DNA from: an uncultured Chlamydiae bacterium
GTDB taxonomy: Bacteria; Chlamydiota; Chlamydiia; Chlamydiales; Parachlamydiaceae
Length of the DNA stretch: 10,097 bases
Assembly (NCBI GenBank): GCA_963830365.1
Contig: CAWHMU010000024.1
Coordinates: forward strand, 1-10,097
Direction: 5' to 3'
Part shown: piece after piece, positions 1,859 through 10,096 of the stretch
How positions within the stretch are numbered: the first letter of the stretch is position 1
Layout of the letters: each line of letters opens with the position of its first letter
The notes under the pieces: model-generated
Told to the model about the DNA's origin: nothing
The model's input: only the letters and a program-made list of their open reading frames with translations
Database searches by the model: none
Made by a program: the position numbers and the translations under genes

Positions 1859-4800
1859 TCATACTAGGCTTTCGGCTGCACCGAGCTTGATGAAAAGCTG
1901 GTGCAGCGGGCTGTCGAAATAATGTGCGCGGCTTTCATCTTTCCAGAGCAGGATCTTCTGCATGAAAAGCTCGTAGAGCGCTTTAGTGTCGGCGCCCTTC
2001 AGCCATTTTTCCAGCTGGACGAGCTCCTGGCGGCTATAGTTGCTGTCGCCGCGGAAGAATTTGGCCTGCACCTTCAATGTGAGCAGTTTGCCATCTTTTT
2101 CAAAGCGTTCCGCGGCAATGCCTTCCTTTCCCTGCACAAGCGTGCCGCTGTCAAAGTGGTACAGCGTCAGGCGCAGCTCGCGCTTTTGCCCCTTGTCGGG
2201 GTTCAGACTGTCATCTTGCAGCATCGTCTTAAAGGCTGCCGCATCGTCGTTATCAAGCAGCATGAGGCGCAGTCCGCCTGTCTGTTTGTCCTCAATGGCC
2301 AGTGCATAGTCGGCTTCCTTCTGCGCAAACCCAAAAGGCGTTGAATCAACGAGACGCTCGGTTTCCGGCCATAAATTCAGACTGAACAGCAGCCTGCTAT
2401 CGAAACGGCTTCCCCCTCTAGCCAGTTCGGGGGTGTTTTTAAAGGCGTCCTGCACGGAGAATACGGGGCGGGCATCCCCCAGAATGCCGCTGAAATGATT
2501 CATCAGCCAAAGAGGCGTGCCGATGCCACTGAAAAATTTCCTGGTTGAGCTGTCGATAAACAGCGAGAGATCACTATCAAAGCTTTTCGGCGTGAAGTAA
2601 CTGTTGGTGAACAGATCCTTTAGTTCCCAGTTGGTTGGTGGACGGAACTTGCCGGGATTTGCAGGATATACCGCGCGTTCTTTTTTAGTTTCGACTTCTT
2701 TTTGCGTTTCACTTTCTTTTTCCACTTGGACGGTGCGCTGCCTGCCGTAGCGTGCGGATTGAACCAGCCGGTCGGGGAGAAGTTTCAATTCAGCTTCGGC
2801 CAGCGCCCGAATCTCCCTTTCGATGGCCTGACTGTCGAATTTTCCTTTCAGCAACGACAGGCTGCGGAAGGTTTGCATGGCTTTACTATTGAGGAAGTCT
2901 GCTACATCTGCAGCCACCACCTTCTCACGGGCGTCGGTGGAGGCTGTCTTGCCATAGAGTTCGAAGGGGCGGGCGGTCATGATGGAAGAAAACAACTCAC
3001 GGCAGCCGTCAAAAAGTTGGCTCAGATCAGTTTCGGGGAGGTTGGGATCCAAAGCGACCGCTAAAACCTTTTCAAGCAGATGCGCCTGCATCTTTTGCTT
3101 GAAGGAGCGGTAGTTGTCATTGCCCTGCCGCTCTGCCTGGTTGTTGATCACATAAAGGATGAGGTGCTTCAGCTCAAGCTCGCCGTTAACACTTATCGCC
3201 ATGCTTTGTTTTAAAGTCGTCTTGATGATCTCACGGTCTTCCGCTGTCACCAGGAAATTCACGCGCTGGGCTTTGTCCAGACCGCGCAGCCGCCAGACGG
3301 CCTGCAGCAGATCGCGCAGCAGGGTATGGCGGCCGACAGAGACTACCGCCGTCATGCGGGCGCCAAGCTTGATGTCGGAACCTGTGGTGTGCTCCTGGTC
3401 CCAGAAGGCGACGATCTCTTCCTTCGTAAGGCTGCTGCGTGCCAGCTCAACGCTATGAGGGCGCCCGTCGACAAGCGTCATCACCATCAGCTTGTTCTGC
3501 CCATCATAAAAAGCCACACCTTTAATGTCCGTACCCTGCCAGCAGTCCAGCCGCAGCATGGCTTCAGCCACATCGGCGCGGTTGGCCACATCGCGGAACA
3601 TACCGGCCGTATCGATGAAAGAACCATTGGGAAGGCCCTGGCGGCTGTAAATCTTTGCCAGCAGGTCTTTGATCCCCTGCCGGTTTTTTGCCCCACCGGC
3701 AGAGGGCATGTCGATCGTTTCTACATGCGGCGGACTATTTTGCCATAAGAGATTTAGAGTTTTAGCGGTGGTATCGGAAGGATAGGCCAGCTGCATCTGT
3801 TTTGGGAAGGTATCCACATTCCAAAGTGTGCCGCTCATGCCTTGCGTATGCTTGAACAGCAGACCGAACATTTGAGCGTCGGCGTTGAGCTGGGTGGCAT
3901 AGACTTTGATCTCAGGGACGACGTAGTTTTTGATGAGTTCAATTTGCAACTGCCGGTTGGTATTGACTATTTTAGTGATGGCTTTAAGGTCATCAGCCGA
4001 CAGCTTATTAATGTTATAGCGGGTGACGCCGCCGGTCAGCTGCAGAAATTTTTGATAGCTGTCGAGAGCCTTGATCGGTTTAGTCGCAAATTTCTTCCGC
4101 TCAGATAACAATAGCAGCTGCAAGCGGGCGATTTCCTTCTCGATGATGTCTTGCGGCAGGCCGGAGGCCAGATGCATCTGGATGGAATAATTGAGAACCT
4201 CCACTTCTGTACCAAATTGAGAGGTAGGGTTGGGCTTGCTGTGGTGATAGGGAACAGCCAGGTGGTCGCTCAACTTGTCCGGATTTTTACCATAGTGTTC
4301 GTTGAGGTTCTTTTGGGCCGTCAGCGGCAGTAGTTCATTGAATTCTTCTTTGTACAGGGCTAGCAGGTCTTGCACGTAAGGGGCAGCTTGTCTTTCAATC
4401 AACCCACCCCCTGCTTGCCCTGGACGATTCATCAAAAAATCTTCCAGCTGCAGCCGTTCCTTGCCGCTGAGCTTGGCAAGGAAAGCTTGCAACGGCTTAT
4501 TTTGCGCGCCAATTCTTCCCTCGAGCAAGGCTCTTGTCAGCATGGGTTTGACGGTGGCATCGTAGTGCTCTTTGGAGAATGGGATAGCACAGGCAAAATC
4601 TGTAAAGCCCAGCCGGACACTCTGGTTGACATTGGCGTCGGTAGCCAAAAATAAATACAGGTCGGTCAAAGCATTACTGTACACGGGATCCAAAGACTTC
4701 GATGCCCCCACGGTATAATGGAACGATTTCAGCACATCCAGCACGGTGTCGACTTCATCGATCATGACATTGCCGGAGGCTTTGAGCAGTCCGAAAATCT

Positions 4801-7800
4801 TTTGGAAAAGCCTGATTTCCTGCATCACAGAAGCTTGCTCGGCCTTTCCTGAAAGCACATTGGAGGTATAGATATCGAGCTTTTCAGCGAATTTAAGGTA
4901 CAGGCTCTGCAGGCTGCTATTCTTCATGAGCAGCAGCTTGCGCTCGCCCCTGATGCGTTCCAGCCGTTCATAGATGCGCTGCAGCTTAGCGTTATCAAGC
5001 CGGCTGTCGCGGTCGAATTCAAACACCTCCAGCACCTGCTCAAAACTTTGCCCCAAGGTTTTTTGCAGCTCAGGCGCCATCGAGGTCATCAGCGCATCTG
5101 GCAGGAGGGCGATAGCCAGTTGCTCCCCATCGGCATTGAGCAGGCTGAGCAGAGGCAGGATGACGGAGGTCTTGCCGGCGCCCATGATCATCTCAAGCAC
5201 AGCGCCCAGATGCTGCGGCGCCCCGACCTTGCCGTCATTAAGCTTCAGCTTGGCGAGATTGGCGGCCTGGTCCTTGCGCAGCAATACATTCATATAATAT
5301 TCGAAGACGAGGTATTGGGGATGTTTGGCCACGCTATAGGCGCGGTAAGACGTCGCGATGGCGGCCACCTCTTGCACGGCCTGCTGAAGATCTTCAGCCG
5401 GGGCCTTGGCATCTCTAAATCTTTCCAGCTGCTCGATAGCGGCCACAAAGCGCGCCAGATGCTGCTGGTAGGTGGCGGCTGCCAGGTAGGCCTGGACAGT
5501 ATTTACCAAAGCCACAACATCTTGATCGGTTAAGGCAGGGTTTCGCTGACGGTAGAAGGCCGTATCGGCATGCAGAAAGAGGCGCAGCGCCTCGTCGATA
5601 TCAATAGGACGTTCCACAACGGCTACAATGCGCACTTCGCGCGCCGCCTGCAGGGCACGATCAGGGAATGGCTGGTTAGCCAAGGCCTCTATTTTCAGGT
5701 GTTTCTCGGCCAAAGCCGTACGGCCCTGCGCCAAGGTCTGCTGTAGGTCGAGCTTCAGGCTATGCAACCTGGCAAAGTCTTTGACGGCATAAATCGATGG
5801 GGCTTCTTCTTTGGACAGCTTGGCGCCGGCAACCAAAGCCTTGATGCGCTGCAGTTCCCTTTTGGTGGCTGCGTCGCCGGCGGAAACAGAAAACACATCC
5901 AACAGCTCAGCTTTGCCTGGTGGGGTATTAGGCAACAAATTTTGGGAGGGCGCATCTTTTTTTATTAGATATTCTTGCAGGTTTGCGACCACCGCTTTAG
6001 AGCCGAAGGGATGATCCAGCAAGTTCAGGCACATGCCTTCAATCTGCTGCGGCGTGCGCGCGGTAGCCGAAGGCGCTTCTACGTCCATCATAGAGCCTTG
6101 AGGCAAGGCAGATTGAATGTCCATATTAAACCGTTGGGCAATTTCAAATACGCTTCCGATAACCCCTGTAGCAGATTCATTAGCAGTATAATTATCACTT
6201 GAGCTAGAGAGGGTGTTGCATGCATTTATTACTTCTTCTGCAGGTGGGAAGTCAATACCCAAAGACTGGGGAAAAGTAGGCCTCCATTGCAGTACATAAT
6301 TTAAAAGGCTGCGCAAAACCAAGGCTGTCATGCTTTCATATTCATCCTCGCCAGCAAGTTTGATCGCCAGCGTCTTGCGTACCACCTGCCAAAGCGCATC
6401 TGCGGTAAGATCTGTAGTGGCATAGTCAGTGCCGGCCATTTTAGAGACAAGCTTGATCAAATGATCACGTGTCAGCTCTGAGGGGTGGCTTAAAGCGCGG
6501 TAATAATAGGGGAAATCTTGCAGCAACGTTGGCTTTAGAATCGAAGCCGCCTGTCTTCTCGACTCATCCCTTTTCAATGAATTGATCAAATTTCCTATCC
6601 ACTTATCCTTCTCACAATTAAGGGTACTTGGTCTGCCATATTGATAAAACGGTAGCCGTTCGAAATATGTCTGCACCCATTGCAGCATATTGGCAGGGAG
6701 AGGCTGCAACCTGTCGTAGCTTTCTTTGGCGAGTGTACGGATGCGATTTGCCAGCACGGCCTGGACATTGTTTTGTTTTTTCTTTATCATTTCTGTATCT
6801 AGGAGTTTAAGCAGCAACACCTCTTCCTGAACAGAAAGCTTAAAATCTCCTAGGTACTCCAAATTTTCGAGATAGTTTGGATAGCCTTCATACAACATTT
6901 TAAAGACCTTCTCGCCCAATGCATTTGGAGTCTTTTCCTCTGTTTTCCTGTTAAAGACAGCATTCAATATTTCTTCTAAGGGCTCTTGATCTTGGCTGTC
7001 GATCGAGGATGGCTTGTAATGATCTTCATGATCAGCAAAAAGCAACACCAGGGCTTTCAGGCGCAAGGCTGCCGCCTTGGGATGAGGATCTTTGTTATTT
7101 TCATTTAACTTGGCGATGTCAAACAGGATAGCCTTTTCCTGCATCGATAGGGGCTGCAGCTGGGAGCCGAAACCATACAGATATTTCTTGGCTTGATCAT
7201 AGTCGTGCACCCATAAGTAGTTTCTGGCCAGCATCAGCCGGGCAGCCTCGCTGCGCGGCTCCAGCAGACCGCTTTGGACATTGACATCATAGGCGAACAG
7301 TTGCTTCTTTTGGCTACGGGACCCGGATTGCCGCACCGCTTCCGGAACCAAGCCGCGCTCCACCCCTCCAAATGAGGAATCCGAAATAATCACGCGCCGT
7401 TGTACATCCCCCGTCGCCGTCGGTTTTTCCAGTACCAGGTAGTCTTCGAATTTGGCAAGGGAGGCAACGCCTTGCGTCCCGGCCAACTGAAAGTCATCTA
7501 ATAGAGCAGAAACAGCCCGCCATTGGGCCTTCTCACGCCCCATCCCGTATCCCTTCGCAGAGATTTTTTCAACATTGAAGGTAATGCCATAGCGGGACAA
7601 TTCGATACTCCTCGCCATACCGGTAGCCGCCTCCTGCAAAATGATGATATGGGAGGGATCTTCGAAACGCCTAAGGAAAGAAAACGGAGCATCACGACAG
7701 GAGATGTCCATCACCACCAAACCGGTTTTTTCGCCCTTTTCATCGAGCTGGTGGATGACTGATGTACCGGCCGCTGCGCCTTGCTTGACAGGCTCAATAT

Positions 7801-9472
7801 GATAAAGGGGCGCATGCGTAGTCTGCTGAGTGATCCATGCCTCTTCATTAGGAGTGGCGGCGACCCACACATCAGCATTTTGGAAAATGAACGGCAAAAC
7901 AGAGGATGAGAATTTTTTATACAATTTATCATGGAACTGGCGCCGTATGATCAGTTCATTGCTATCCTGTCCTTTATCAGAGATACTCACACGATAATGG
8001 TTGCCGCGTTTATCACTGAATTCAAAGGTGTCTTTTTGGATCTGATGGGCAGCAAAGGTGGTTTCTTGCTGAAAGAGATCGGTGAAGGTTTTGTGGGTAG
8101 TGATACAGGCCGGCAGGATGCTAAGCTGGGCATGATTGGCATATATCCTGCCCCTGCGGGCATCGATGGTATAGGATCCGTCTGCCGTACTACAAAGTGG
8201 AAACTTGGCGGTATCCCATGCTTGCCTGGCAGCCTCAGGATAGAAGGCACGCAAGACTTGGTCTAAAATATCCCCATCGGTCTTGAAAATAGCCGCATGC
8301 AGCTCATCATTTCTCTCACGCAAAGCATCGCGTGTTTCGATTTCAACAAACGTATCCTTCTGCATTTCACCAGGATCAAATAACGATAGCTGGATGCTGC
8401 TTATCAAAAAGTCTGCCGTCTCCTCGGCCGTCAAGCTTTTTCGGCTGGTATAGTAGGCTACCAATTCGCGATGCAGGGCATGCTGAATTATTCTGGGCAG
8501 GTCCGCCCGGGCTTGCAGCTTCTTAATATCCTGCCGCGTATCAAAAAAACCGGCCTTAAAATGTGCCGGAAAAGATGGCGCCATTTCTCCTTGCACCCCT
8601 GCCACATAGTCGGCCAAGCGCCGGTTGATTTGGAGATAGAACAGGGCGGTATCCAGAGAGGGTGCGTCAGGCTGGAGGTTATCTTCCAGGCCCCGCTGGC
8701 AAAAAGCCGCTAGCTGACTGACAAAGCTGTCAACTGATGAAGGCGTTTTCATTTCCTCCAATAAGAGGGTGCTATCGAACATCAGAATATTGAATATATC
8801 GCGATAAGCCTTTTCAGCCAGCAGATGTGGCTGCTGTTTGAAATAACCCAAAGTTCCCTGAACCTGCAACTGCCGCCTGCTGCTCAATCCCAGCAGCTGG
8901 CGCATCTGTTGCAGAGAAAACTCCTGCCTAGCCTTTTCAGAAAGGCCCAGGTTATCAGGCTGCGCAATGCCAATCTCATTCGGCGACAAGCGGCGGCGTT
9001 CAGTTATCTTTTTATTTTTTTCATATTCTTTTCTTTGTATTGGTTTTCCTCTTTGGAATAATTCTAAAATTTCCTTATTGAAAATCTCCGAGGTCGTGAG
9101 TTTCAAATGAAATTCAGGCCAGACAGCTTTGCCTCGACTTATTTTATCAGCTGTGTCCATGTAAAAGTCAAATGAGTGATCATCTTCCTTGGAATCGACA
9201 ACCTTGTTGTAATAGTAATAATCTACCCCATCCCCATCGGATTCGTAGTTTGAGATAAATATATTCTTAAAAATTATAAACTCACCTTTATCTCCATCAT
9301 AACCACAAAAAAAATTCTTGCGAAAGTTAGATTCAAGTCTATCGTATAAAGGATGACTGAAAAAACCTGTCAAGAGATAATCCGTATAATGGGACATTTC
9401 CGCCAAGTCGAAGAAGGAGTGGGGGAGTATATTTTTTGGCTTTTCACCTTCCGGTAATTGGGAGTGGGTCAA
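1859..9472 (-). CDS. Giant DUF3638/DUF3645-type protein with an SF2 (SecA-like) P-loop ATPase module; downstream part of an interrupted ORF, true start uncertain
   Basis: Uninterrupted frame of 2,537 codons. Motifs in order: FEYYMNVLLRKDQ (Q-motif-like, ~5270-5305); Walker A EMIMGAGKTS (GAGKT 5182-5168); Walker B MIDEVD (DEVD 4759-4748); DUF3645-like HYG...LAVPY....P...SQF (~4200-4310); motif III GMSGT (3841-3827); motif V DQEHTTGSDIK (3400-3368); motif VI QAVWRLR (3304-3284); a charged tract (~2680-2725); C-terminal AKFFRGDSNY. The TTG at 9472 has no Shine-Dalgarno and sits one codon after an in-frame TAA. Confidence 0.85.
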   Translation of the reverse strand: MTHSQLPEGEKPKNILPHSFFDLAEMSHYTDYLLTGFFSHPLYDRLESNFRKNFFCGYDGDKGEFIIFKNIFISNYESDGDGVDYYYYNKVVDSKEDDHSFDFYMDTADKISRGKAVWPEFHLKLTTSEIFNKEILELFQRGKPIQRKEYEKNKKITERRRLSPNEIGIAQPDNLGLSEKARQEFSLQQMRQLLGLSSRRQLQVQGTLGYFKQQPHLLAEKAYRDIFNILMFDSTLLLEEMKTPSSVDSFVSQLAAFCQRGLEDNLQPDAPSLDTALFYLQINRRLADYVAGVQGEMAPSFPAHFKAGFFDTRQDIKKLQARADLPRIIQHALHRELVAYYTSRKSLTAEETADFLISSIQLSLFDPGEMQKDTFVEIETRDALRERNDELHAAIFKTDGDILDQVLRAFYPEAARQAWDTAKFPLCSTADGSYTIDARRGRIYANHAQLSILPACITTHKTFTDLFQQETTFAAHQIQKDTFEFSDKRGNHYRVSISDKGQDSNELIIRRQFHDKLYKKFSSSVLPFIFQNADVWVAATPNEEAWITQQTTHAPLYHIEPVKQGAAAGTSVIHQLDEKGEKTGLVVMDISCRDAPFSFLRRFEDPSHIIILQEAATGMARSIELSRYGITFNVEKISAKGYGMGREKAQWRAVSALLDDFQLAGTQGVASLAKFEDYLVLEKPTATGDVQRRVIISDSSFGGVERGLVPEAVRQSGSRSQKKQLFAYDVNVQSGLLEPRSEAARLMLARNYLWVHDYDQAKKYLYGFGSQLQPLSMQEKAILFDIAKLNENNKDPHPKAAALRLKALVLLFADHEDHYKPSSIDSQDQEPLEEILNAVFNRKTEEKTPNALGEKVFKMLYEGYPNYLENLEYLGDFKLSVQEEVLLLKLLDTEMIKKKQNNVQAVLANRIRTLAKESYDRLQPLPANMLQWVQTYFERLPFYQYGRPSTLNCEKDKWIGNLINSLKRDESRRQAASILKPTLLQDFPYYYRALSHPSELTRDHLIKLVSKMAGTDYATTDLTADALWQVVRKTLAIKLAGEDEYESMTALVLRSLLNYVLQWRPTFPQSLGIDFPPAEEVINACNTLSSSSDNYTANESATGVIGSVFEIAQRFNMDIQSALPQGSMMDVEAPSATARTPQQIEGMCLNLLDHPFGSKAVVANLQEYLIKKDAPSQNLLPNTPPGKAELLDVFSVSAGDAATKRELQRIKALVAGAKLSKEEAPSIYAVKDFARLHSLKLDLQQTLAQGRTALAEKHLKIEALANQPFPDRALQAAREVRIVAVVERPIDIDEALRLFLHADTAFYRQRNPALTDQDVVALVNTVQAYLAAATYQQHLARFVAAIEQLERFRDAKAPAEDLQQAVQEVAAIATSYRAYSVAKHPQYLVFEYYMNVLLRKDQAANLAKLKLNDGKVGAPQHLGAVLEMIMGAGKTSVILPLLSLLNADGEQLAIALLPDALMTSMAPELQKTLGQSFEQVLEVFEFDRDSRLDNAKLQRIYERLERIRGERKLLLMKNSSLQSLYLKFAEKLDIYTSNVLSGKAEQASVMQEIRLFQKIFGLLKASGNVMIDEVDTVLDVLKSFHYTVGASKSLDPVYSNALTDLYLFLATDANVNQSVRLGFTDFACAIPFSKEHYDATVKPMLTRALLEGRIGAQNKPLQAFLAKLSGKERLQLEDFLMNRPGQAGGGLIERQAAPYVQDLLALYKEEFNELLPLTAQKNLNEHYGKNPDKLSDHLAVPYHHSKPNPTSQFGTEVEVLNYSIQMHLASGLPQDIIEKEIARLQLLLLSERKKFATKPIKALDSYQKFLQLTGGVTRYNINKLSADDLKAITKIVNTNRQLQIELIKNYVVPEIKVYATQLNADAQMFGLLFKHTQGMSGTLWNVDTFPKQMQLAYPSDTTAKTLNLLWQNSPPHVETIDMPSAGGAKNRQGIKDLLAKIYSRQGLPNGSFIDTAGMFRDVANRADVAEAMLRLDCWQGTDIKGVAFYDGQNKLMVMTLVDGRPHSVELARSSLTKEEIVAFWDQEHTTGSDIKLGARMTAVVSVGRHTLLRDLLQAVWRLRGLDKAQRVNFLVTAEDREIIKTTLKQSMAISVNGELELKHLILYVINNQAERQGNDNYRSFKQKMQAHLLEKVLAVALDPNLPETDLSQLFDGCRELFSSIMTARPFELYGKTASTDAREKVVAADVADFLNSKAMQTFRSLSLLKGKFDSQAIEREIRALAEAELKLLPDRLVQSARYGRQRTVQVEKESETQKEVETKKERAVYPANPGKFRPPTNWELKDLFTNSYFTPKSFDSDLSLFIDSSTRKFFSGIGTPLWLMNHFSGILGDARPVFSVQDAFKNTPELARGGSRFDSRLLFSLNLWPETERLVDSTPFGFAQKEADYALAIEDKQTGGLRLMLLDNDDAAAFKTMLQDDSLNPDKGQKRELRLTLYHFDSGTLVQGKEGIAAERFEKDGKLLTLKVQAKFFRGDSNYSRQELVQLEKWLKGADTKALYELFMQKILLWKDESRAHYFDSPLHQLFIKLGAAESLV

Positions 9473-9475
9473 AAA

Positions 9476-10096
9476 TTAGGAGCTGGTCTGCCATGAAAGG
9501 GCCTGCGCAGCCTGCTCTTCGAACTTTTCATTCAGAAGCTCAGGGTAGTTTTTGGCAATTTCAGCTTGAATGTGATCTTGCTTTATCCATTCGACCACCC
9601 AGTACACAAAAGGTGGGACCGGTAGAAAATTGGTGGAATCATCCCCCCAAACTTGTGATGTTTGCCCAGCTGGATATTCTTCAAAATTGAAAAAACTTTT
9701 TTCTTTAATTTTAAAACCGGGCTGGGCCCAATACGCTTTAATAGCGGCGGCCTCAAGCGCCCATGCCGGGTCGAAAATGGCAAAATGCAGCGAACCATTA
9801 TCCAGGAAAAGGTCAAAAGATTGTTGACGTAGACTCGGCAGTTCAAAACCCAGTGTTTTGGCATGCTGGCGGGCTATTTTGTCCGATATGGTAAGGAATT
9901 TGACCAGTGTCAAAAAGTCCGTAGGCTTAACCTGCATGGACCGATTGGCATCCGCTTGACCGATATGTAGCTGGTTGGTAACAAAATCGCGGCTCAGCAC
10001 TGCAAACGTTTTTAATAGCCGGGGAGCCTGACTGCCGTCCAGCTGTTGCCAGAAGGCGGCATGCTCAAGGGGAATTTTTAGGGCAAATTCCTTAAT
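9476..10096 (-). CDS. Upstream segment of the same giant protein (partial; frame open to the window edge)
   Basis: I translated the frame beyond the listed GTG at 10000. It has no stop up to 10096 (IKEFALKIPLEHAAFWQQLDGSQAPRLLKTFAVLSRDF...). It is in the same frame as the 2537-aa ORF and ends at TAA 9478-9476. Confidence 0.7.
   Translation of the reverse strand: MKEFALKIPLEHAAFWQQLDGSQAPRLLKTFAVLSRDFVTNQLHIGQADANRSMQVKPTDFLTLVKFLTISDKIARQHAKTLGFELPSLRQQSFDLFLDNGSLHFAIFDPAWALEAAAIKAYWAQPGFKIKEKSFFNFEEYPAGQTSQVWGDDSTNFLPVPPFVYWVVEWIKQDHIQAEIAKNYPELLNEKFEEQAAQALSWQTSS

Follow-up and report, generated by a model that had tools for sequence, protein, structure and literature searches.

Does the ATPase motor of a giant chlamydial protein of the DUF3638 family work on polypeptides, as SecA, the bacterial motor of protein export, does, or on nucleic acid? 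The question is raised by a 10,097-nucleotide contig of an uncultured Parachlamydiaceae bacterium (CAWHMU010000024.1, contig C24 of a 2.73-Mb draft genome that is 82% complete), which in its entirety is called the window here and which carries on its minus strand a gene of this family. We find that the motor is built like SecA yet stands outside the SecA family. The top fold matches of the predicted motor were viral members of its own family (E 1.5e-27); beyond these, SecA was the best structural match in two aligners, 5 Z units above the next family, and DinG was the first non-SecA match in Foldseek. An earlier note on this DNA had called for such a structure comparison, and since SecA comes first in both aligners, the best match is not a nucleic-acid helicase or a restriction motor. 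The superpositions on SecA extend to about residue 2210 of the window's protein and reach SecA residues 818–830 (residue numbers are those of the 2537-residue open reading frame at 1859–9472, which carries the entire motor and for which the public gene call has 2512 residues; positions are on the minus strand unless stated otherwise). In the model, a 40-residue scaffold-like helix (3172–3053; residues 2101–2140) and further helices are predicted at 2834–3172. We consider SecA very probably the nearest structural kin of the motor. Given this predicted resemblance to the SecA fold, the family likely takes hold of proteins and pulls on them; whether the substrate is indeed polypeptide rather than DNA or RNA we regard as an even call.

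The motor displays the layout of a superfamily 2 (SF2) ATPase, with two RecA domains and motifs Q, I, Ia, II, III, IV, V and VI. DUF3638 itself (PF12340; 4688–5341, residues 1378–1595) is the first half of RecA domain 1 and comprises motifs Q, I, Ia and II, as placed by Pfam (E 2.1e-26) and the model; with 93.1 bits against a cut-off of 31 it is the sole Pfam hit in the protein. Motif I (Walker A) reads EMIMGAGKT (5168–5194, residues 1427–1435), motif II (Walker B) MIDEVDTVL (4739–4765, residues 1570–1578) and motif III GMSGT (3827–3841, residues 1878–1882). They are followed by FIDTAG in the motif IV region (3602–3619), by motif V, HTTGSDIKLG (3362–3391, residues 2028–2037), which does not contain the GRG of SecA, and by R2053 together with motif VI, QAVWRLR (3284–3316, residues 2057–2063). 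Every motif quoted in the earlier note was recovered exactly where it had been placed, as were the codons of K1434 (5173–5171) and E1573 (4756–4754). The likeness of motif V to SecA, which the note had also pointed out, is partly luck in its IKLG portion, as the family consensus is TTGsDikq.

Conservation was counted over 119 aligned rows, i.e. the window's protein and 118 homologues. Q1402, K1434, E1573, G1881 and the motif IV residue D1954 are kept in all 119 rows, and D1572, T1882, Q2057, R2061 and R2063 in 118. Because they are near-invariant across these rows, the motor motifs are evidently not a chance pattern. DExD occurs in 113 rows, and no cysteine of the motor is conserved at 85% or more. 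Two marks were common to SecA only among the groups sampled, a sequence-level comparison that left out SNF2, Ski2, RecQ, Cas3 and XPD: a Met before motif I (76 rows), and an Arg that precedes the Gln of motif VI by four residues (103 rows, including 49 of 49 eukaryotic and viral ones). The latter, R2053 in the window, falls in our own alignment at the position of R566, which according to 10.1101/2021.01.18.427065 forms the Gate1 salt bridge of E. coli SecA with D217. The putative acidic partner is variable in the family (D or N at 1579, E or S at 1583).

A further SecA-like feature claimed in the earlier note was a large insertion between motifs II and III. The distance of about 300 residues was borne out, with 306 residues from D1572 to G1878. 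In the model, the insertion (3881–4729, residues ~1582–1864) leaves RecA domain 1 and returns to it by a stem of two beta strands, predicted at 1582–1588 and 1860–1864 (model E223–229 and E501–505), and it departs and rejoins at the site of the preprotein-binding domain (PPXD) of SecA. Folded alone, it was predicted at a pLDDT (predicted local distance difference test) of 94.4 with stem strands E9–18 and E281–289. Its top structural match was then a PPXD construct, though a weak one, and Foldseek with the insertion alone found no match. Residues 1594–1768 (4169–4693) form the PPXD-like part, and an extra helical sub-domain lies beyond the PPXD match (3911–4159). A DUF3645-like motif, HYG...AVPY...P...S.FG...NYSIQ (4178–4297, residues 1726–1765), had also been claimed; it aligns to eukaryotic carriers of PF12359, while Pfam gave no PF12359 hit in the window's protein at E≤1. 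We favour, with some caution, homology between the insertion and the SecA PPXD.

Long spacing had been taken as a mark of SecA as well. This holds against DEAD-box proteins and HsdR, in which motifs II and III lie only ~27–69 residues apart, but not against DinG, whose insertion at the same place has a median of 171 residues. This brings in a rival reading, in which the protein would be an SF2 translocase or sensor that depends on nucleic acid, in the manner of DinG/XPD, HsdR or RIG-I; the insertion would clamp RNA or DNA, and this binding would switch on a cysteine-enzyme head. As far as is known, almost every SF2 enzyme works on nucleic acid, and DinG, as said, followed SecA in Foldseek. On the other side, both structure aligners rank SecA clearly first, no motor cysteine reaches 85% conservation, and the insertion alone matched no DinG/XPD domain (including the XPD Arch) or RIG-I insertion domain among 50 rows, a result that is not exclusionary.

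The profile comparison, also called for in the earlier note, leaned the other way, and sequence evidence in general counts against a close link to SecA. We used hhalign with control alignments of SecA, SecA2-like proteins, DinG, RecG, Mfd, DEAD-box proteins and HsdR (narrow alignments of 4–43 rows, compared without a secondary-structure term). For the first RecA half, HsdR (probability 90.1) and DEAD-box proteins (~90) came first, ahead of Mfd (39–61) and SecA (28–42), and Pfam DEAD and ResIII weakly match two relatives. The insertion scored below 1 against every control alignment; pairing with SecA (at TLASITFQNYFRMYxKLAGMTGT, E 0.001–0.003) was confined to the segment that precedes motif III. 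Searches of PDB sequences with phmmer and with the family profile returned nothing relevant. Neither the PDB SecAs nor the SecA of this genome were picked up by the profile, PF07517 finds only ordinary SecA in the genome, and the Pfam scan of the window's protein gave no SecA family hit. Some marks cited earlier for SecA are shared elsewhere, namely DExD with DEAD-box proteins and the GFTGT form of motif III with HsdR. Finally, motifs V and VI read TTGxD and QxxWRxR, compared with GRGTD and QxxGRxxR in SecA, and differ from those of every SF2 group sampled. All of these points, together with the long DinG insertion and the usual nucleic-acid substrate of SF2 enzymes, weigh against a SecA-type protein motor; after setting them against the structural ranking we judge the nucleic-acid reading unlikely, if still worth serious attention.

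Weak PF12340 hits (E ~5e-4) in 1-Mb genomes were considered as a possible SecA signal. They were not counted as members, since all five that we checked were other helicases, which to judge by their motifs are four Mfd-like proteins and one PriA-like protein. When a stored homologue was searched in the Atlas, only DUF3638/DUF3645 clusters were found at ≥0.9.

The altered motifs V and VI also bear on a further alternative, an ATP-gated, non-processive switch or scaffold in which the nucleotide state would do no more than open and shut the clamp, thereby licensing the head enzyme, similar to STAND or RIG-I-type regulators. Relatives fused to signalling or ubiquitin modules (EF-hand, UBA, thioredoxin and UCH domains) fit this idea. 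The almost invariant catalytic positions, however, fit real turnover, and the clamp geometry is of the SecA type, so that we hold such a switch to be very unlikely.

Comparison with known systems places the motor in the same way. It shares with SecA and SecA2 the two-strand-stem insertion between motifs II and III, the long helix that follows the second RecA domain, EM..G.GKT, DExD, GxxGT and the Arg at the Gate1 position. It differs in its 10–14% identity, in the absence of a SecA Pfam or profile match, in the changed motifs V and VI, in an insertion about twice as long and in its position inside a protein of 3,000–4,000 residues. SecA is a near-universal stand-alone protein of ~900 residues, whereas the DUF3638 family is patchy and multi-copy, and the genome encodes a separate ordinary SecA. 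Eight short SecA2-like proteins (L213–L220, 659–762 residues) were seen alongside ordinary SecA in five proteobacterial genomes, and L221 is more divergent. DinG and XPD have DEAH and SAT motifs, do not carry the Met or Arg marks, possess an insertion that is structurally unmatched and lie 5 Z units below SecA; the DUF3638 motor reads DExD in 113 of the 119 rows in place of DEAH and has no conserved iron-sulphur cysteines. The DEAD-box signature (DEAD, SAT motif III ~30 residues on, HRIGRxxR) was likewise not found in the motor. HsdR resembles the motor in its GFTGT motif III and scored highest in hhalign against the first RecA half; DExH, short II–III spacing and linked hsdM/hsdS were not found, and the DNA upstream of the window's gene is off the contig. 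The giant DUF3638/DUF3645 proteins share PF12340, the whole motif set and the insertion with the window's protein, which differs from the sampled eukaryotic and viral members by its separate bacterial branch, by undetected PF12359 and by its truncated and interrupted copy.

What might such a motor be coupled to? Full-length relatives, including the sole paralogue in the genome (C32:22757–32316, L263, which also runs off its contig), begin with a GGW..H..N.G.G...Q..G.C head; in the window's copy this region is beyond the contig end. In 182 rows the head residues are kept as H in 176, N in 166, Q in 158 and C in 169, and the head was detected in eukaryotic and viral relatives too. Pfam and PDB sequence searches gave no match to it. 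The residue order recalls, as we presume, Ulp1-type cysteine proteases with their papain-like His-Asn/Asp-Gln-Cys site. A stand-alone protein of 661 residues (L264:1333–3315, G000:C2) has the same cysteine-enzyme-like head and no motor, and similar short head-only proteins occur in other chlamydial genomes. Among viral contigs, P0222 (from L125) has a genuine ubiquitin C-terminal hydrolase domain immediately following its motor.

The N-terminal ends vary. By a crude rule, signal-peptide-like N-termini were found in 16 of 184 proteins and at 8 of 45 loci. Signal-peptide- or lipoprotein-like starts, seen at L040, L041, L043, L045, L050, L055, L081 and L096, fall mostly in the tree branch that holds the window's protein, and one relative (P0053) opens with invasin immunoglobulin repeats. 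The paralogue has a 180-residue leader of which 100–180 residues are common to five otherwise different proteins of the same genome, of 545–1742 residues (L330, L331, L332, L333 and G000:C8:16965–19013), one of them with a protein kinase domain. It looks like a lineage-specific effector leader. The genome also encodes an export gate of the FHIPEP family.

These features allow a scheme for intact family members as exported protein-threading ATPases that feed a cysteine-enzyme head; as a whole we offer it tentatively, since we think it somewhat less probable than not. The swappable leaders seen in relatives would first take the protein out of the bacterium. The two RecA domains, whose motifs are conserved, would then bind and hydrolyse ATP. 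Next, as the model predicts, the PPXD-like insertion would swing over the second RecA domain and close on an unfolded segment of a protein from host or prey, independently of a SecYEG channel. Rounds of ATP turnover would pull on the chain or keep it in place, and the N-terminal His-Asn-Gln-Cys head would meanwhile cut or modify it, perhaps where ubiquitin-like tags are attached.

The same parts suggest a self-translocating motor, a SecA-like unit that drives the N-terminal enzyme payload of the same protein, or partner effectors, through a membrane. The SecA-like fold with clamp and scaffold helix and the payload-like head N-terminal to the motor agree with this, and there is precedent: self-translocation has been proposed for giant proteins of Omnitrophota and actinobacteria (10.1101/2023.11.21.568195, PMC8195603), and SecA-like domains are described in these proteins, in Amoebophilus effectors and in phage WO (10.1101/2023.11.21.568195, PMC3482391, PMC8195603, PMC5062602). 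Those domains and the DUF3638 motor are alike in being divergent SecA-type motors in giant or effector-like proteins of host- or prey-associated bacteria. Going by the published descriptions, the Omnitrophota domains are set apart as recognised SecA DEAD and PP-binding domains without scaffold among many transmembrane segments, whereas the DUF3638 family is unrecognised by SecA models, has the scaffold-like helix and is soluble. Unlike those giant proteins, the window's protein and its paralogue have no transmembrane segment, and a hydrophobic 19-mer occurs in only 13 of 184 relatives; moreover, some members already have signal peptides, and the same head-plus-motor layout is found in eukaryotes and giant viruses. 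We therefore consider self-translocation improbable.

How widespread is the family, and does it act with partners? A family profile run against 1.84 billion representatives hit 9,709 clusters (E≤0.001). PF12340 matches 168 of 300 genomes of the phylum, 141 of them over the cut-off and with up to at least 9 copies per genome, compared with none of 14 control genomes and with ordinary SecA in 25 of 25 genomes. The best relatives are 48% identical in the motor. The closest titled ones come from Parachlamydiaceae (to which the family member P0004 belongs) and other Chlamydiota, and further bacterial ones from Oligoflexia/Bdellovibrionota, Myxococcota and Legionellales-type Gammaproteobacteria. Ten of 124 candidates on viral contigs are family members, viral database entries of the family include Hokovirus, Fadolivirus and Harvfovirus, and eukaryotic relatives occur in oomycetes (P0241), kinetoplastids, dinoflagellates and apicomplexans; the full motif set and the insertion align with the eukaryotic members. 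In an unrooted FastTree of 65 rows, with some row labels inferred and a biased eukaryotic sample, bacterial (34), eukaryotic (17) and viral or virus-like (14) rows each fall on one side of a branch. This split gives no direction of transfer.

Databases label these proteins 'DUF3638 domain-containing protein' or 'ubiquitinyl hydrolase 1'. In the literature searched, DUF3638 is mentioned only incidentally, in a large microsporidian gene family with targeting signals (PMC5423893), in a polymorphic predicted effector of Plasmodiophora (10.64898/2026.10.14.759018), in Tetrahymena peptides of undefined function (PMC12615304) and in a gene table (PMC6237848). We found no link between DUF3638 and SecA and no tested function of the family in the literature searched, which did not extend to most subscription journals and supplements. 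For the genomic setting, 79 bacterial loci were kept of 222 confirmed. An operon or defence system was considered and rejected, the commonest neighbour family being present at only 4 of the 79 loci. Because no neighbour recurs more often, the gene stands alone and is not part of a multi-gene system. The earlier note had seen a candidate for an undescribed system in the window; this did not survive, as there is no recurring neighbour and the copy is broken.

The state of the window's copy requires comment. The gene spans 1859–10096, with 2745 codons present, one in-frame stop and a 5′ end that lies off the contig. Its translation, with an X at the stop, aligns in one unbroken piece to homologues of 3220–3980 residues. 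As this alignment begins only at homologue residue 659–1319, roughly the first 700–1300 residues appear to be absent, and no other contig of the genome was found to hold this part. The stop, a TAA at 9476–9478 in the draft assembly, lies within a variable loop up to ~16 residues longer than in the closest homologues, and homologues align across it. Upstream, a 5′-open segment of 206 residues (9479–10096) aligns to the paralogue P0075 from residue 945 and to other homologues. Thus the length of over 2,500 residues claimed earlier is that of the 2537-residue frame, which is not the whole gene; the TAA and the contig end had gone unnoticed. An alternative code or a suppressor tRNA was considered and is not indicated, because an ordinary stop closes the frame and the output of the tRNA scan contained no line for a suppressor or an unassigned anticodon. 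GC content, ~0.5 over the contig, falls to 0.36 immediately 3′ of the in-frame stop (window 9001–9500), possibly a recombined or hypervariable stretch.

The paralogue has an intact His-Asn-Gln-Cys head and two frameshifts within the motor, near 30,900 and 31,800, which together with the stop makes three breaks in ~5,900 codons of two DUF3638 copies. As a control for breaks, 314 open reading frames from 800 kb of two relatives were used, giving 105 orthologue-like pairs and 45,079 aligned residues. Unbroken pairs numbered 101; of the four flagged, one was a fused-versus-separate gene pair, two had overlapping hits typical of tandem paralogues, and the fourth has stops and sits in the same tandem region. 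Three breaks in two copies, compared with 101 of 105 unbroken control genes, are above background and favour real decay or splitting. Alternatively, the stop could be an assembly error or a tolerated split, with the gene or its 2512-residue motor-bearing part functional. The assembly is indeed a draft, the single lesion in 2745 codons lies in a variable loop with all motor motifs intact, and breaks are not unusual across the family, where head and motor occupy separate open reading frames at 5 of 54 loci (the motor itself is split at 6 of 79). Given the control, we find this alternative doubtful. In view of the in-frame stop and the paralogue's two frameshifts, the locus is most likely decaying or split, and decay of the window's copy is probable.

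The remaining part of the window encodes, on the plus strand, the C-terminal end of a porin BBP7 beta-barrel (1–339), a relative of which adjoins the family gene at the closest locus (L039), and a 500-residue protein (343–1845) with a hydrophobic N-terminus and a C-terminal Big_3_5 immunoglobulin domain. The latter has two DTG motifs (622–630 and 1198–1206), which we take to resemble those of two-lobed pepsin-like aspartic proteases. It gave no PDB sequence match at E≤1 and has no paralogue in the genome.

The value of these results rests in the DUF3638 family and not in the window's cut-off, interrupted copy. Pfam already lists the family, and there are earlier descriptions of SecA-like domains in giant or effector proteins (PMC3482391, PMC8195603 and PMC5062602). 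What the present analysis adds is a test of the insertion by itself, a comparison of clamp position, profile controls with a negative outcome and the observation of swappable export leaders. In the broadest reading, the DUF3638/DUF3645 proteins would be a further branch of the SecA-type polypeptide motors that works without a channel; DUF3645 would be what is left of SecA's preprotein clamp, and bacteria would export members into host or prey cells. The proteins, spread over eukaryotes, giant viruses and protist-associated bacteria, would then be the SF2 equivalent, in a single chain, of AAA+ protease or p97-plus-deubiquitinase machines, and we put this reading forward as a possibility that we ourselves doubt. 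Among SF2 motors that have been studied well, SecA is the only one known to move protein. If the reading is true, two long-standing DUFs would gain a testable function, the label 'ubiquitinyl hydrolase 1' would be questionable for the motor region, and the family, which counts at least 9,709 clusters in bacteria, giant viruses and eukaryotes, would constitute a second kind of protein-moving SF2 motor.

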